From Girardia tigrina (Eukaryota), in assembly GCA_001938485.1 (NCBI GenBank), contig MQRK01231528.1, positions 1 through 64,000 of the forward strand: a DNA stretch of 64,000 nucleotides, written 5' to 3'. The translations under genes were made by a program, and so were the position numbers. The notes below the pieces were generated by a model. The model saw only the letters and a program-made list of their open reading frames with translations. It was not told where the DNA came from and made no database searches. Positions 6,167 through 21,767 of the stretch are shown one piece after another (position 1 is the stretch's first letter; every line of letters starts with the position of its first letter).

Positions 6167-6339
6167 GTTTAGAAAATATTTCTCTTTATTTTAATTATAG
6201 CACTCACAATTTTAAATATTTAAAATTAATATATAAATTATATAAAAAAATAAATATTTAAAACTATTATCCATTAAAATAAAATGTAAATAAAATTTAA
6301 TAAAAAATAAAATAAGTTGAAAAATATGTTTTGTAATAA

Positions 6340-12154: not shown

Positions 12155-13413
12155 TTAGCCTGATGCAAAAGAGATGTCGTTTTTTAACCATCAACTTTAA
12201 ATGAACATAACTTTTTTTAGAATTAACTTTATTAGTCAAAATAAAAACCCATTACATTGAACACACTGTTACCAAAGGGTAACAAGTTTTTTATTCCAGT
12301 TTCATAAAATTCTGGAGTTCTGGAGGGATGAAGTCGTCCAAGGCTCTGTCAGCATCTTCTTGATTTCTGAAACATTTTTTTGCGAAGGAACTGGCTGAAA
12401 TGTTTGAAAAGGTGATAGTCTGTAGGAGAAAGATCTGGTTAGTACGGTTGACGAGGCAGAGTTTCATATTCCAGTTCGTTTAAGTTCAGCATGGTCTTTC
12501 TTGTAACACGTGAACGAGCATTGTCATGCAGAATAATTAGCCCCTTTCTATTGAGTAATGCCGGCCGTTTTTTTGTAGTTTTTGGTTCATTTTGTCAATT
12601 TGCTAACAATACTTTTCCGCTGTAATTGTTTCATTTTGTTTTAGGAAGCTGTAATGGATTAAACCGTGTGCGGATCACCAAACAGTTACCATGACTTTTT
12701 TGGTGTAATTTTGACTTCAGGAAAGACTTTGGAGCCTCACTGAAATCCAACCACTGAGCTGAACGTCGCCGGTTATCATATAGGATCCATTTTTCATCGC
12801 ACGTTACAATTCGATCCAGAAACGGGTCGCTTTGATTACACAAAAGAAAAGAAGAACATACGTTAAAACGACGATTTTTTTAATTTTCGTTTAATTCCTG
12901 CGGCACCAATTGTCCAGCTTTTTCACTTTCCAGATATCCTTCAAATAGCGAACAACTGTTGATTGGAGAACGTTAAGTTCTTGAGTGACTTCCCGTGATT
13001 TTTTATGCGGGTCGGCATTGATTAACTTTTTTAAATGGTCGTCGTCAACTTGTGATGGTCGACTACCGTTTTCTTCATCTTCAAGGCTCTCGTTGCCACA
13101 ACGAAACTTAGAAAACCAACGTTGTACGGTTCGTAAATTAGTGGTATTTTGTCCAAATATATTGTTGATATTCAGAGTCGTTTCTGTCGCTTTTCGACCT
13201 AGTTTGAAATCGTAGAATAAAATTGTTCTCATTTCCTTCTTTTCTAACATTTCTAAAATAAAATAAATACACCTTAAATTAACAACAATGGTGTTAAAAG
13301 TTTAAGATTTAAAGTAAATTTAAATATGAATCTATTTATTAATGATTTTTTAAATATTTTAAACAATGAATATTAAATACATTAAAAACGAAATTTCTTT
13401 TGCATCAACCTAA
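12155..13413 (-). mobile_element. full-length decayed mariner (Hsmar1/cecropia-like)
   Basis: TIRs TTAGCCTGATGCAAAAGAGATGTCGTTTT and AAAACGAAATTTCTTTTGCATCAACCTAA+TA. The transposase MLEKKEMRTILFYDFKLGRKATET...IVTCDEKWILYDN is broken by frameshifts. Confidence 0.93.
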
Positions 13414-13519
13414 TAGTTTTATTTTGGGATCCAGATAAAACAATAAAGTAAATTCGTTGCTAGAAACATTGACTGATTATATTACTGTATAAGCTAATTA
13501 AGTGCCAAATTTTGCAAAA

Positions 13520-13895
13520 TTTTGGAGATCTTGAGATCATAAATTCTATTTCTGACAATACTTCCGTCCAATCTCTATGCGTTCCATCCTTTATTCTGAT
13601 ATTAAGAGCATCTCTAATTGTTCTAAATTGTCGTTCTATAATTCCATTGGTATTGTGATGATAAGGACTGGAATAAAATACTTCTATCTTAAACTTCTTC
13701 AGTGTTTCTTTAAATAGTTCTGATTCAAATGTTTTGCATCTATCCACATGGATTTCTTTAGGTGGTCCATATTTATATATCCATCTATCCAGCAATATTT
13801 TCCGTAGCGTTTTCTCGTCTTGGTGAGCAAATGCATCCAGGCTAATATATCGGCTAAATTGATCAATTATCGCCAAAATATACTTATTAGGTTCG
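13520..13895 (-). mobile_element. Ty3/Gypsy integrase core fragment
   Basis: KYILAIIDQFSRY...YGPPKEIHVD...SSPYHHNTNGIIERQFRTIRD (rve core). Confidence 0.88.
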
Positions 13896-14402
13896 TGATA
13901 AAAATTCGAAGTCATAATTTTGTAAACTTTATTTCTACTACAATTTTTATTATTGAAACAAATTTATGAGGAACAATATTTCGATTACATAATCCAGATC
14001 TAAAAATTTTAAATATAAATAATAATATCGATGTATAAATATATATGTTATTTTCTTCAATTTTGCATAAATCTTATTTTGTTTCTGTTTTATTAATTTC
14101 TTTTACAATGTCTATAAATTTAGATCTTTAGAAATATTTTAATGGACATATCCTGTAAAAAATTCAATTCCTAAATAATTTTCTTTAATTTTAAATCATT
14201 CCATTTTAAATTATATTTTTTTTAATAAAACTTTCCGTGCACAATAACATTCTAATTTTATTTTAAATAGTGTTACAAAATATATCAAAATCTTCTTTAC
14301 AATATTCTTTAACTTCAAAGATGATATTTTAATTGTGAATTTTTTAAACTTAATTTTTATAAAAAATTTGTCTCAATTTAATTTAAATATTATCATTACT
14401 GT

Positions 14403-14640: not shown

Positions 14641-16532
14641 ATGATTTTTAAAAAATATCAAAAATTTAAAGTTCACCAAAAGGAACCCCGACATCCCCCT
14701 CGTTTTTAAAATTTTTGAATTTTTCAACATTTCGAATAAGTTGTCTACCATTTTTGTCTTCCAACTTGTAGCTTCTTTCGTGAATTCTTTCTATAATTTC
14801 ATAAGGGCCCTCGAATCTATCTTCTCCTTTCGTTCTATTTTCCTTTTGAATCCAGACCTTTTCGCCAACCTTATAAATTCTTCGCGTTACATTTTCCTCT
14901 GGCATGTTTTTTTTTCTTTTAGTCTTATTCTTGTATCCTCTCGGTTTATTTTGCTGTTATCATACCACAATTGTCTATCTATTTTCTTCCCAAATACGAC
15001 TTCTGCTGGACTGCACCCTATCGTCTTTTGTTTCGTTGCATTTATAGCAAATTCCACTTCCGGTAATATGTCTGCCCAACTTGTAGCATTTCTTTCTTTC
15101 AAACTTGCCTGTATGAATTCTCGTATTGTCCGAAACTATCTTTCAATTATCCCATTTGTGTTATGGTTATATGGGCTACAGAAAATCAATTCGATACATT
15201 TTGCTTCCAACATTTCTTTTACTTTTTTCGCTTCAAAACATTCTCTGCAGTCTACGTGGATCTATTTTGGTGCTCCAAATTTTAATATCCATTTCTGTAA
15301 TATCATATATACTATTGTCTCTTCTTCTTGTCTTTTAATTGCTGTCAAGCTCACGTATTTACTGAAATGGTCAATTATTCCCAAGATGTATCTTTCTTTT
15401 CTTACTGTCTCATTCCATGGTCCGCAGATGTCTATATAAACTTTCTCAAATATTTCTGACGTTGTTATTTTTATGTTTTCTTCCTTTGTCTTTGTGGTTA
15501 TTGTCTTTGATCGTTGACACTCCATGCATGATCCTACCACCTCTTTTACCGTTTTCTTTTCTTCTTCCATGTCAAACTTGCCCTTCAGATATTCGTATAC
15601 TTTTTCAGCTCCCGCATGGCACAATAATCTATGTGTTGGTATGATAAGATCGCTTCTTTTTTCTTTCGTTATCCATTCTTTCATACCCGCTCGGGCTTGA
15701 CTCCTCGTAGTCACTGCCAATAATCTCGTCTTGTTTTATTTCCTTTTTTCGCTTCTTCGTGTTCCATTTGGCATTGTATACATATGTCGCAATTCTGTCT
15801 TGATAACATATCAGCGTTGCCGTGCAGCACTTCCTTTCTATATTATATTTCGATATCCAAACTACTTAAGTAATTCATCCATCTTTGGAATTGAGCTGTT
15901 AAGGGTTTCTTTGTATGGAACATGAACGTTATAGATTTATGATCCGTTCTCAATTTAAATCTCTTCCCGTACAGATAATGGTTGAAATGCTGGCAAAAAT
16001 AAAAAATTGCCAAAAGTTCTTTCCTTGTTATACAATAACCTTTTTCATTTGCTGACATTGAATGTGATCCATATGCTATTACTTGCTCTTTCCCCAAATC
16101 ACTTATCTGTGACAGTACCGCCCCTATGCTATCAAAACTGGCATATGTATCTAAAATAAATTGTTTTCCGAAATCTGGGAAGCTCAGTATTGGTGCCGGT
16201 ATCAATGCTTCTTTCATGTCCTTAAACGCTATTTCGCATGCATCCGTCCAGATTAACTTTTCTTTATTTAAACCACACATTCCTTCTAATACTTTGACTT
16301 TCTTTGAATATCCTTTTGATGTGGACAAGGCCACCGATCGATCGCATGCTAAAATGCGACAGCGCAATATTTGCTCGTTGATCAATAAAGTTTACCATAT
16401 TTCGGTGGCGTTCATACTTTCGAAGGGTCGCCACCATACCCGCGCGCACCGTGATCCAGACGATGAAGGATCGGGGATCGGTCACTCGTGACACATCGGA
16501 AGTNNNNNNNNNNNNNNNNNNNNNNNNNNNNN

Positions 16533-16701
16533 ATGTCGACGATTTACAATCGATAAACGCGACAATCGCTCCACGGGAGTTGTTGTTCTGATGGATTCGG
16601 ATTGTTTGGATTTTGCCATGACTTTGAGACGTTTGTCTAATGTCGGTTTCTCCGCAATTTTTCGGTAAATTATTAATCCATAAATAACGAGTGATTCACA
16701 T
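16533..16701 (-). pseudogene. SPEN: 5' end (RRM1) of a SPEN/SHARP-like gene, stop at codon 2
   Basis: Not in the ORF track. Reads M*ITRYLWINNLPKNCGETDIRQTSQSHGKIQTIRIHQNNNSRGAIVAFIDCKSS, versus SPEN MVRETRHLWVGNLPENVREEKIIEHFKRYGRVESVKIL...AAFVDFVDIKSA. Confidence 0.65.
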
Positions 16702-16774
16702 GATTTGGAACAAACAGAAAATTTTGATGTGGATAAAGTCATCAATATCGGTTGCGCCAATCATCGCGTCACTC

Positions 16775-17145
16775 GTTCCCTCCTCGAGCGGCGGCCTCAG
16801 CATCCCCAGCAGCACAGCGTCAGTGGACAGCGCGTCCTCGAGCACCAACCACTGTCCTTGTCGCGGAGCCGTCACGAGGGCGCCCGCGCGCCACTGAGAG
16901 TCTCCGGGCGAGTCCGTGTAGCTGTATCCGCCCAGGATAGCGCGCGCATCCGCGTCGTCGCTCACTTGCACCCGATTGATCGATCGGCCCATCTTATCGG
17001 CCATGAAATCGATCAGTGCAAATTTACCACTGCCTACGGGACCGAACACGAAGATCGATCGATTCGCCGCGATAAATGTCGCGAAATCATCGATCTGCGA
17101 GGCGAATTGACCAGGTTGCACGAATCGGTTCATTCTCGGCCGATC
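16775..17145 (-). pseudogene. MDN1: midasin (MDN1/Rea1) AAA1 domain fragment
   Basis: FVFGPVGSGKFALIDFMA...VQVSDDADARAILGGYSYTDSPGDSQWRAGALVTA..GQWLVLED matches MDN1 'GPIGCGKTSLVE..VQLGDQTDSKMLLGMYRCTDVPGEFVWQPGTL..GHWILLED'. The Walker A motif is damaged. Confidence 0.85.
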
Positions 17146-19239
17146 NNNNNNNNNNNNNNNNNNNNNNNNNNNNNNNNNNNNNNNNNNNNNNNNNNNNNNN
17201 NNNNNNNNNNNNNNNNNNNNNNNNNNNNNNNNNNNNNNNNNNNNNATCGATTATTTATGAAACCACTCAATAAATTGCAATTGTGAAGACAAGCAAGTGA
17301 TTTAGTAAAATTTTTTATTTAGAAATTTAAAAAAGTACATATCATTGTTATTATTAAAACACCAGCAGTTTTTTTTCAGTTTTTATCAAAAATTTATTGA
17401 AATTTTTTTTTAATGCGCATCTGGATTTTTCAGTTTTAAAAATTTCAGGGGTCGCAAATCCAATTAAGAAAGTTTTTTTTCAAAATTAAAATCAAAAAAA
17501 TTAAATTAAATATCACTTAAAAAACTCTTAATTGGTTGCTACTGCTGATGCGATTTAGTGAACACTACACCTTTAATAAACCTTCTATTATAGTTGCAAA
17601 TTCTTAAAAAAACTTCTCAAATTCTTAATACATTTCGGCCTTTTGGAAATTCTCTATCGCTGCAATCTTTTCTGGATCTGTTTGTATCCCTTGGTCATTT
17701 ATTATGTGTCCAAGAAATTTTACTTCCGCTCGTAACATCTTACATTTCGCTGGTTTTATTCTTAGTCCTGTTTGTTGGATCCTCTCAAATACTTCTCTTA
17801 TCACCTTGTAATGTTCTTCCTTTGTACTTGTCGCTATTAGTATGTCATCCAAATAAACTGATGCCCCTTTCTTTATTGGTTGTAACACCTTTGTCATTAG
17901 TTCTTGGAATGTTCCTAGGGCTGCGGCTATGGCAAAAGGCATTCGTTTTGAACAAAACTGTCCTGTCTTGGTGGAGAACGCCGTTTTTTCCTGCGATTCT
18001 TTATCCAATTCTACTTGATAGTATGCATTCCCTAAGTCTATTGTACTAAAATATTGGGTACCGTATCCATCCATCATTTCAGCCATATTCGGCATGGGGG
18101 AATGCTTGACGCTTAGTGATTCTATTTAACTGTCTAAAATCTAGACATAATCTGATTTCGTCCTTGTCCTTTTTCCACACGCATACTATTGGTGTGTTCC
18201 ATTCAGAATTACATGGTTTTATTATTCCGTTTTTCTCCAAACTTTTTATAGCTTCTTCTAGTTTGTCTTCCAGATGTACCGGCTGTCTTCTTGGTTTTAT
18301 GTTTATGGGTCCCCCTGTTGTCTCTTTTCGGTGTTGTAGCAAGTTTGTACGACCTATATCCCAATCGTTTGCCATAAATACTCCTCCATGTTCGTGAATT
18401 ATTTTCTCTAGAGTTTTATCGTTCTTTGTATCTATCACTTTTAATGCCTCTTGAACGCGATTCTCGTTGGTGATTTCTTTTCTAAATTTAGTTTCGATTT
18501 CACATATGTTGATTCTCTCTGTTTCCTGATAATTCCGCTCTTTCCATTATAATTCTATTCCGAACTCTTTCATCAATGGTATTCCTCCGATCATCTCTGG
18601 TCTCAAATTTTTCACTATTACAAATCTAATTTTTTCGGCTTTATATCCAATCTTTACTATCGTTTCTATTTCTCCTCTGACTTCCATTTGTAGTCCATTT
18701 GCTGCGGTAAATGTCTGATTTGTCTGTTCCATCCTTATGTAATTTAAGTTTTTTTAATATTCCTTCCATCATAACATTCAACGCTGCACCCGTATCCAGT
18801 AAACATCCGATTTCTATGTTTTCTATTCTAACTTTTACACTCGGTCGGCCCTGTAATTTATCGTATGTAATCGGAACATTTTCACACTTATTAATAATTA
18901 GCAATTCTCTATCACCAAATGATTTTTTTTATAAATGTCACGACTTTCTGATTTTCTGGTTCCTGATGGGGTTTTGGTTCACTTTGTTCTTTTTGATTAT
19001 TTTTCTTAATTTTAACATTTATATTATTAATATCAACTTTATTATTTATTTTATTTATATAATTTATATTACTACTACTATATATATAATTTATATGATC
19101 TGGTTCATGCGCATGAAAACTTACTCCAGTGCCAAGATCGGTTCCTTGTCGTCTTGGCACGATTCGTTTTTTTCTATATGTTCTTGCTCTCCTCCGTATT
19201 CTTCCTTCTCCATCATCGTGATCTGTCTTCTCTTTCGAA

Positions 19240-19800
19240 CCCTACACATAAGTCCATTGTTTCAACTAAAGGAACATTAGTAAATAAACTGACTACATTA
19301 AAAGACACCATCACTTCCTCATTGGAACTAGCTTTGTAATTTAAGATCTGATTAACAAAAGCAAAACTGTCTTTACATTCCAACGCCTCAATAATCTTTT
19401 CAGAACTTTAGCAACATTATATTGCGTTGTGTGAATTATCGAGATGACCGGACGCATAGGAATACCCTCTTTATGAATTTTGGGTAATCCGTATAATTTA
19501 GCCGGTTGAGCACCCTGACTTATTAAACCGTTACGAAAGGATTCATTTATTTCTTTACTTTTTACTAATTGATTGATCAATTTATTCAATCTTTGTTCAT
19601 CTTTAATGGGTATCGGTATATTATTTTGTCTCAATTTAATCTCAGAAAATTTATCAGGTGTAATTATTTGCATCATTTTGTCTATATATTCAGATTTATT
19701 CTGTATATATACCCCTTTGCCTTTATCAGACTTTGAAATACAAATATCGTCTCTTTTCATAATTAACCTCATCCATTTTAAAAGATGAGTTTTCTGTTTT
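19240..19800 (-). mobile_element. Penelope-like RT N-terminal fragment abutting the Gypsy gag end
   Basis: ISKSDKGKGV...YGLPKIHKEGIPMRPVIS...YNVAK, a frameshift, then VSFNVVSLFTNVPLVETMDL. Confidence 0.9.
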
Positions 19801-20080
19801 ACAAAATGGTTTTGATTCACATTACGAACGACAGTTTTGTGAATCTCTACTAATAAGACACCACAACCCATCAATTAACATTCAGAATGGGCAAAGTAAA
19901 GTTATTTCAATACTTACAAGTTTTAATTAAGATATTTTTTGCCAATATTAATCAATAATACTTTAATAAATTATAACATATTTTTAAAATTATTCCATTT
20001 AAATTTAATATACCTTTTAAAATCATATTATTAAAAACAATTAAAATATTGAACTATTTAAATATTAAAATACTAAATTT

Positions 20081-20635: not shown

Positions 20636-21767
20636 TTTATTTCGAGCATTATATGGACTAGGAGATTACACAGCTTGAAATCCGAGTGTTGCTGCGTCAC
20701 TGTTGGAAGAAAGGGTTGACAACACGAGATGTTGAGAAGGCAATTTGCAAAGTTGTAGGTACACAAAGGGTCGAAAAAAGTACGGCAATTGATTGGTTCA
20801 AGCGCTTCAATAAAGGTAACTTTGACTTGAAGGACATTCCTCGTTCTGGACGACCAACAAAATTGGATAACGATGACTTGCAAGAAGAGTTGGACATGAA
20901 GCTTTCGTCAAGCACTCGCGATTTGGCATTTAAGCTTAGAGTTGGCAAGTCAACCATACATTGGCATTTGAAGCAGCTCAACTTTGTGCACAAGAAACCG
21001 CGTCAAGATCCACACGAACTCACCAAAGCACAGGACGATAAAAGATCCAAATTATCCGACAACGGCTTCATAATCCACGAGATGACCGCTTTTGGAAACA
21101 AACTGTGACATCGGACGAGAAGTGGGTCTACTTGGTCAACTACAACCGATAAAAGCGATAGGTTGCACCGGGTCAAGCAACGTCATCAGTTCCAAAACAA
21201 GATCGATTTGGCTTGAAAATCATGTTGTGCATCTGCTGGAACTTTGAGGGAGTCCTGCACTTTGAGTTGGTGCAGAACGGCCAGGCCATCAATGCAGAGC
21301 TTCATCGTTAACAGCTGGATCGCTTCTACGAGAAGCTCAAGGAGAAGTACTCTGTCTTAATCAACCGAAGACATGCACTGCTTCATCAAGACAATGCCAA
21401 GCCGAATACCGCCAAGAAGACCACGGGCAGGTTCCAAGAGTTGGATGGAGTCGAAATACTGCCGCATCCTGCTTACAGCCCCAATTGCGCTCCATCCGAC
21501 TAGGGCCTTCTCCTATCCATGCAACACTTATTGAATGACCGACGATTCGAAGAATTTGATGAAGTTGAACAAGCATGTCTAGAGTTCTTCAATTCGAAGC
21601 AGTCGGAATGGTGCTTTGACCAGATCCGAAAGCTAGCAGGCCGTTGGAAGAAAGTTGTCAAAAACGATGGACTGTATTTTGAAGATAATTGTTTTTTATT
21701 TAAAATAAATTCTTATACAAATAATTATATTTTTCATTCTTGACCGGAAACTCTTACGACAATCTAA
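20633..21767 (+). mobile_element. decayed mariner (DD34D), left TIR lost
   Basis: IRVLLRHCWKKG..WFKRF..RSGRP..VTSDEKWV..HQDNAKP..HPAYSPNCAPSD*. Right TIR ...CCGGAAACTCTTACGACAATCTAA. Confidence 0.9.

Follow-up and report, generated by a model that had tools for sequence, protein, structure and literature searches.

A Ty3/Gypsy retrotransposon family of Girardia tigrina with RNA-derived host gene fragments in its long terminal repeats, in frame with gag

The window analyzed here is a 64,000-nt stretch of contig MQRK01231528.1 of Girardia tigrina, and all positions follow its numbering. An insert on its minus strand (16317-17569) is well supported as a real solo long terminal repeat (LTR) of a gag-pol Ty3/Gypsy family that bears RNA-derived pieces of host genes, here called cargo, in the reading frame of gag. 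These pieces are front ends of spliced host mRNAs in sense orientation. It is likely that they were captured by template switching and that in-frame start codons were selected; Gag would be released by a predicted cut after Gly-Gly.

The insert is 1,253 bp long and is bracketed by a perfect CCTTT duplication (16312-16316 and 17570-17574), as an earlier reading of the sequence alone, the original prediction, had stated. Its minus strand begins and ends TGTAGTG...CCACATCA. Both ends are high-copy, with 1,691 and 952 first-look candidates, of which 40 each were scored. The loci fetched from the genome assembly are designated by L-numbers and contain 173 distinct LTR starts. Sixty-three of these belong to solo copies with a perfect 5-bp duplication, and none has a duplication of only 4 or 6 bp, so the earlier expectation of integrase-made TG...CA ends that recur with 5-bp duplications is borne out. 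A purine tract, AAAAAGGGGGCTGA, stands directly before TG at 38 of the 173 starts. At 25 the CA is followed directly by AAA-TGGTGTCAGAA, a primer-binding site, and one start has both. Among the remaining starts, 33 have an end without a duplication and 15 have no visible end. The primer site, TGGTGTCAGAA(G/A)T, shows almost no variation across 11 bases in the 48 copies compared. We take it to be tRNA-Leu-like; the fetched loci hold no tRNA gene for comparison.

Downstream (3') of the primer site lie gag (DUF7041), protease, reverse transcriptase (RT; RVT_1), RNase H, and integrase (Integrase_H2C2, rve). Gag has two CHCC boxes (L237, L238, L241). Locus L238 is a whole element inside matching GTGAT duplications, in the order LTR, primer site, gag, RT, integrase, purine tract, LTR. 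Direct terminal repeats surround the internal region in L238, L059, L239, and L047; identity between the two LTRs can be measured in part only and is 97% over 335 bp in L047. For gag, RT, and integrase the ratio of nonsynonymous to synonymous substitution rates (dN/dS) is 0.15 for shared variants versus 0.57 for rare ones. LTRs of the family are mostly 0.7-1.3 kb long. The family is also present in the Logan contigs of four public runs (X5 alone is recorded as RNA), and these contigs include joins of LTR to primer site. Internal deletion has reduced two 5' LTRs to 13 bp (L039:1313-1328) and about 120 bp (L238:1843-1963), and both are still followed by the primer site.

The LTRs share one layout, in which about 165 constant bases and about 100 variable AT-rich bases are followed by the cargo, a short conserved end, and then the primer site. 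In the window, where all parts are on the minus strand, the constant start occupies 17405-17569. It is 85-96% identical across all cargo types and resembles the unique 3' region (U3) of an LTR; it presumably holds the promoter. The variable AT-rich stretch (17302-17404) separates it from the midasin piece and includes a 25-bp SPEN remnant (17326-17302), which matches the 5' region of host SPEN (88% identity to host locus L174) as well as the first bases of the SPEN piece found elsewhere in the family. The midasin (MDN1) piece (16780-17301) consists of a leader, a short N-terminal stretch, and the first AAA domain (AAA_5, E 7e-11); its coding part is 60% G+C. The midasin domain had been predicted, and that assignment holds except for its last 20 or so codons (16779-16725), which repeat, inside the LTR, the sequence found at the end of the family's LTRs. 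This internal copy (16721-16779) ends in TCCACATCA plus AAAT, and LTRs of the midasin-only type stop at this point, where a 5-bp duplication or a primer site follows. The window copy is thus a recombinant that runs through the end of a midasin-type LTR (16725) and AAAT and continues as a SPEN-type LTR. Its SPEN piece (16534-16720) comprises the end of the 5' untranslated region, a start codon at 16701, and the first half of RRM1 (RRM_1, E 1e-6). The predicted SPEN start and RRM are therefore present, with the qualification that the start codon in this copy is followed immediately by a stop. The last part (16317-16503) is a GC piece (51% G+C) together with the LTR 3' end; it is common to many cargo types, is open in the gag frame, and its origin was not identified. 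A gap-free copy of 1,203 bp, L007, has the identical order of parts within its own 5-bp duplication. The order is therefore real and not a product of the two N stretches in the window, across which contiguity is supported.

Five cargos can be named from Pfam matches: the midasin AAA domain, the SPEN RRM, a short-chain ketoacyl reductase, a UBE2G-type E2, and CUX1_N. Gene names below the level of these families are partly our assumption. At least six further pieces are unnamed, and six of the pieces, the GC piece of the window and those labeled TTGD, EEPRS-NGGP, L015x, L103x, and L099x, gave no match in Pfam, PDB, or Rfam. The cargo of L041 presumably resembles ANKRD27/VARP; it matched nothing in Pfam or the ESM Atlas and is not counted among the five. 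Each named cargo occurs both in LTRs flanked by the purine tract (3') and in LTRs flanked by the primer site (5'). Cargo types also recombine with one another, as midasin-SPEN in the window, reductase-SPEN, and reductase-midasin; a reductase-midasin-GC composite is found in contigs of the public runs and at assembly locus L319. The predicted shuffling of host gene fragments by a mobile family is thereby confirmed. In a tree of 136 LTR starts, with rough support values, the E2, CUX1, and older midasin sets track sublineages, and the midasin, reductase, and SPEN cargos are intermixed within one young clade.

In most of the 150 midasins listed, the midasin piece finds its best match in the first AAA domain. 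A Clonorchis midasin gives the highest score with the piece, and a Paragonimus midasin the third highest. An older midasin LTR type (L314, L316, L317, L325, L107) is 83% identical to that of the window and has a different N-terminal stretch and an intact-looking P-loop. The two types represent either two captures or one capture seen at two stages.

Comparison with host genes indicates that the cargo is of RNA origin, because host introns are missing from the LTR copies. The SPEN piece of the window shares 93-98% identity with exons 1 and 2 of L174, a SPEN-like host locus. The 129-nt GT-AG intron of this locus is absent from all 50 LTR copies, and its place in the window is 16622/16621. A 46-nt intron of the host E2 locus L274 is gone from 29 of 30 LTR copies, and a second E2 intron from all six copies inspected. 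The reductase cargo corresponds to exon 1 of host paralogues (90-96% identity). The reductase (HSD17B12-like) gene is expanded in the genome to several close paralogues (L169-L173, L146-L155).

Cargo is taken from the front of the gene. It starts about 290 nt (SPEN), 40 nt (reductase), or 75-100 nt (E2) upstream of the host start codon, the CUX1_N match begins at model position 5, and in trematode midasins the first AAA domain lies no more than about 75-85 residues from the N-terminus. It is also found on the sense strand only: none of the 85 antisense open reading frame (ORF) representatives scanned, out of 149, has a Pfam match inside the LTR, and the single match lies in a flank. Nine-nucleotide microhomology overlaps are found at the junction of SPEN with the next piece, at the junction of midasin with the GC piece, and at a 117-nt SPEN deletion.

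Cargo and gag share one reading frame. At the junction of LTR end and primer site, AAA-TGG makes an ATG, and the frame is open into the gag core for 370 codons in L034 and 348 in L046. Leader length variants between subfamilies (+15, +27, and +33 nt) are all multiples of three, deletions of 117 nt (in SPEN), 444 nt, and 147 nt preserve the frame, and the recombinants are also in frame. Cargo lies in the gag frame in 60 of 72 gap-free cases (midasin 13/15, SPEN 19/19, reductase 8/9, E2 10/15, CUX1 9/13, the L041 piece 1/1; 13 more were dropped for N gaps); the copies are related and so are not 72 independent trials, which reduces the force of the figure and makes capture events the fair count. 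All five Pfam-defined cargos are in the gag frame, for which the chance expectation is (1/3)^5 = 0.004. Frameshifting indel classes common to at least three copies number 30 in the first 300 bp of the LTR versus a single one in the coding references (cargo, leader, and gag, together about 3.6 kb), and that one is private to the reference. Rare frameshifting indels number 43 and 92, respectively. The contrast (p 6e-12), counted without the larger in-frame leader variants, is inflated by homopolymer runs, of which there are 12 in the first 300 bp versus 16 in the coding references. The pooled dN/dS of shared variants in cargo is 0.48 versus 0.67 for rare variants (p 0.23), and that of linkers is 0.68. 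Values for single cargos are 0.2 (SPEN), 0.25 (CUX1), and 0.37 (E2), all from small counts, and 0.68 (midasin) and 1.48 (reductase). The reading frame is maintained, and the amino acids of the cargo are not clearly so.

One further locus, L040, has no family LTR start within 1.5 kb and contains a duplicated host-like stretch about 160-330 nt 5' of the primer site. This stretch has a weak ubiquitin match (E 0.0009), and an ATG just before the ACATCA end is out of the gag frame. L040 is possibly a single-copy, out-of-frame capture.

The approximately 75 residues preceding the gag core are probably a ubiquitin-like domain (UBL), judging from sequence comparison. They match ISG15 (E 0.012) with Gly-Gly aligned, and in the ESM Atlas the residues before the gag core fall in a ubiquitin/Rad60-SLD cluster (0.94, 174 shared features). 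Of the 24 copies that can be read here, 16 have Gly-Gly. The shared-variant dN/dS of the domain is 0.34 versus 0.99 for rare variants (p 0.014). By analogy with ubiquitin fusions, cleavage after Gly-Gly by a host protease is predicted, with the balance slightly in its favor. The original prediction had noted neither this domain nor the intron loss and shared gag frame. At codons 38-75 or so past the primer site on the minus strand of L034, the Gag extension has a hydrophobic, AT-rich stretch in which the frame is kept but the sequence is not. The dN/dS over the first 60 codons is above 1. This stretch could be a membrane anchor or a mere spacer.

Together these features suggest a mechanism of capture during reverse transcription. 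Minus-strand DNA primed at the primer site would copy part of the LTR's unique 5' region (U5). The nascent DNA would then jump through microhomology to a co-packaged host mRNA and copy it to near its 5' end. A second jump, to the U3 end of the element RNA, would bring the new piece into both LTRs and overwrite the front of any older cargo. We propose that such minus-strand template switching is the reason for the sense orientation, the front ends, the intron loss, the fixed place behind U3, and the nesting of cargos. Element RNA would begin upstream of the cargo, so that the captured AUG would be scanned first. An out-of-frame AUG would act as an inhibitory upstream ORF, and an in-frame AUG would yield a fusion of cargo, linker, UBL, and Gag; with cargo ahead of gag on the RNA, the element would tolerate captured start codons only in that frame. 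A host deubiquitinase that cut after Gly-Gly would free a uniform Gag, which would make arbitrary cargo tolerable. Solo LTRs such as the one in the window are left by recombination between the two LTRs of an element. It is conceivable, and perhaps only a little short of probable, that the family practices heritable start-snatching, in which host mRNAs keep supplying an autonomous element with a fresh 5' leader and start codon, the LTRs store these, and a ubiquitin-fusion cut equalizes Gag.

Several further results weigh against this reading. None of the elements recovered in the loci fetched has two complete LTRs with identical cargo-bearing sequence, and the LTRs of L251 are of two different types. 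The primer site itself provides an in-frame ATG, and a captured start codon is therefore not strictly required by gag. Logan contigs cannot reveal the transcription start, poly(A) site, translation, or cleavage, and the steps of element expression set out above are inferred. The UBL fold was not confirmed, with a predicted local distance difference test score of 51 from AlphaFold2 and no meaningful structural match in VIA-align. Pfam ubiquitin matches just 3 of 12 UBL copies, at E 0.1 or worse, a profile search is weaker (E 0.086) than that with a single sequence, and profile comparison with a host ubiquitin-like domain is unsupportive (probability 0.1). The motif is LPGG, not LRGG. The host exon that should have supplied the midasin piece was not found among 50 fetched of 89 protein matches; these 50 are LTR-type or partial copies without midasin continuation. 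A family search for the first-domain exon gave downstream exons only (C226361, C24489). A pattern search was null and is uninformative, as the pattern codons are the LTR's own end, and the 3' half of the piece has no contig in the four public runs, which proves nothing. Because no source exon was found in the matches fetched, the GC-rich midasin piece may come from a foreign or older source.

The main rival, and on balance an unlikely one, is 5' transduction. Here an intronic copy of the element would be transcribed from a host promoter, host first exons would be spliced onto the LTR, and the chimeric RNA would be reverse-transcribed, with the same element and the same frame rule. It accounts equally well for front ends, sense strand, and intron loss. 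It is favored by the reductase piece, which stops exactly at the host exon-1 donor (AAAA/gtgag) with no evident microhomology; this junction fits splicing better than template switching and counts against the latter. In addition, the points at which two different cargos meet SPEN lie no more than one base apart, and an AG stands there in one copy, L018. However, where SPEN meets the reductase exon, an AG is missing from host SPEN and from most LTR copies. The long SPEN piece breaks off inside an exon, with 9 nt of microhomology, and overlaps of 9 nt mark two further junctions.

Less probable still is that the captured domains are retained for a protein function of their own beyond the start codons, for example as dominant-negative fragments on the particle. 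Such a function is suggested by the pooled cargo dN/dS and the low values for SPEN, CUX1, and E2, and the planarian element Burro has a polyprotein with apoptosis- and ubiquitin-related domains (PMC6431247). The cargo ratio is, however, indistinct from that of rare variants, unlike the ratios for gag, RT, and integrase, and the midasin and reductase values are high. The domains are truncated in mid-fold and repeatedly shortened through in-frame deletions, and in the tree of LTR starts a single young clade holds a mixture of midasin, reductase, and SPEN cargos.

A non-autonomous Ginger-like or pack-type DNA element, moved by an integrase acting in trans, was the original proposal and is now very improbable as an explanation. 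The TG...CA ends, the 5-bp duplication, and the lack of coding capacity for mobility in the segment are compatible with it. The same ends, however, have a purine tract before them and a primer site after them in other copies, and gag-pol lies between two such repeats. The long terminal inverted repeats and DNA-level cargo of a DNA transposon are not seen; the inverted termini agree at only about 5 of 7 bases, and the cargo is intron-less. L238 and the 25 primer-site copies refute this class, and the segment is an LTR of a gag-pol Gypsy family rather than a separate pack element in need of an LTR or Ginger partner. Least probable of all is an assembly artefact in which host gene contigs were joined into a solo LTR across N gaps, for although the window copy has two N stretches and the assembly is fragmented (255,254 contigs), the artefact is refuted for the family by L007, by dozens of cargo LTRs that are free of gaps and have duplications of their own, and by related composites in contigs of the four public runs. 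Of the earlier concern about a mis-scaffolded ordinary solo LTR, only the solo LTR remains, and the cargo belongs to it.

Among the closest known systems is LTR-mediated retroposition (Tan et al. 2016, PMC5131818), in which microsimilarity-driven template switches join spliced pieces of host mRNA, several genes can enter one chimera, and the product spreads with the element. Intron-less host sequence and junction microsimilarity are shared with those retrocopies, the reductase junction excepted. In those cases captured sequence takes the place of part of the internal ORFs, which yields a non-autonomous element, whereas here the cargo lies in the LTR, is always a front end, and is in the gag frame, and gag-pol is under purifying selection. 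BARE-2, one of the LTR chimeras described with Veju (PMC13317346), also gained foreign sequence in its LTR through template switching; that insert came from another retrotransposon, and here host mRNAs were captured serially.

With the CsRn1 clade (CsRn1, PwRn1, AgCR; PMC2582038) the family shares a CHCC (CX2HX9CX3C) Gag motif, the order protease, RT, RNase H, integrase, a size of about 5 kb, and a flatworm host. Members of that clade have a tRNA-Trp primer site, and PwRn1 has a 4-bp duplication and 381-bp LTRs (PMC2582038). The family described here differs in its two CHCC boxes, 5-bp duplication throughout, longer LTRs, and an extension of about 190 residues with the UBL before Gag, and probably also in its primer site, TGGTGTCAGAA; the likeness is one of motif and description and is not a clade assignment.

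In cytopathogenic pestiviruses, cellular hydrolases free NS3 with an authentic N-terminus behind captured ubiquitin (PMC8310069). The arrangement is similar in that a ubiquitin-type domain, itself preceded by sequence of host origin, lies immediately ahead of an essential protein. Pestiviruses are RNA viruses with one-off insertions of true ubiquitin (PMC8310069), whereas here a diverged UBL is fixed in the family and its cleavage is predicted. Segmented negative-strand viruses take host 5' ends with start codons that lengthen viral frames N-terminally, as here (PMC7323901). Their snatched leaders are short, transient, and not inherited (PMC7323901), in contrast to the hundreds of bases fixed and inherited in these LTRs. 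Burro, a giant planarian Gypsy element, has host-like polyprotein domains that include a midasin-like region and a SUMO-like domain (PMC6431247). Its N-terminal Gag comes first and the extra domains follow it, in an element of 30 kb (PMC6431247), and here the cargo is upstream of gag. PMC5408684 describes no comparable case. In the literature covered, no element was found with serial in-frame mRNA fronts in its LTR and a UBL before Gag; repeat libraries (Repbase, Dfam), subscription papers, and supplements lay outside this scope, and a library entry may exist.

Gene capture by LTR elements is known as damage, in which coding genes are replaced by cargo. Here capture looks like part of a working element and has involved at least five named host genes in turn, and its selective mark is a kept frame and not clearly kept amino acids. 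The family would serve as a natural archive of strong-stop template switching and as a candidate ubiquitin-fusion strategy in a retroelement. If true, start-snatching would be a route to borrow host translational control or to outrun silencing, and it would spread hundreds of promoter-linked host gene starts. Hundreds of solo LTRs with near-identical host first exons can be expected to confuse gene models, RNA interference design, read mapping, and small-RNA work in this flatworm.

The insert interrupts an AT-rich Gypsy element of a different family, in which no DNA match to the internal region of the LTR family was found. Its pol gene, on the minus strand, is split as predicted between RT (17625-18125; RVT_1, E 5e-28) and RNase H (15843-16313; RT_RNaseH_2, E 7e-32, and RT_RNaseH). 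Elsewhere in the window, a 56-bp match (82%) to the leader of the LTR family is found on the minus strand at 6208-6261. The decayed neighbors at 12891-13301, 13460-13963, 19341-19874, and 20662-21108 are, we presume, mariner-like transposases, another Gypsy integrase, and a Penelope-like RT. Two long single ORFs near family copies in other loci, L062:2276-2879 (plus strand) and L063:2094-2949 (minus strand), are similar to a UBE2K-type E2 and a MOCS3/UBA4-type enzyme and are possibly retrocopies.

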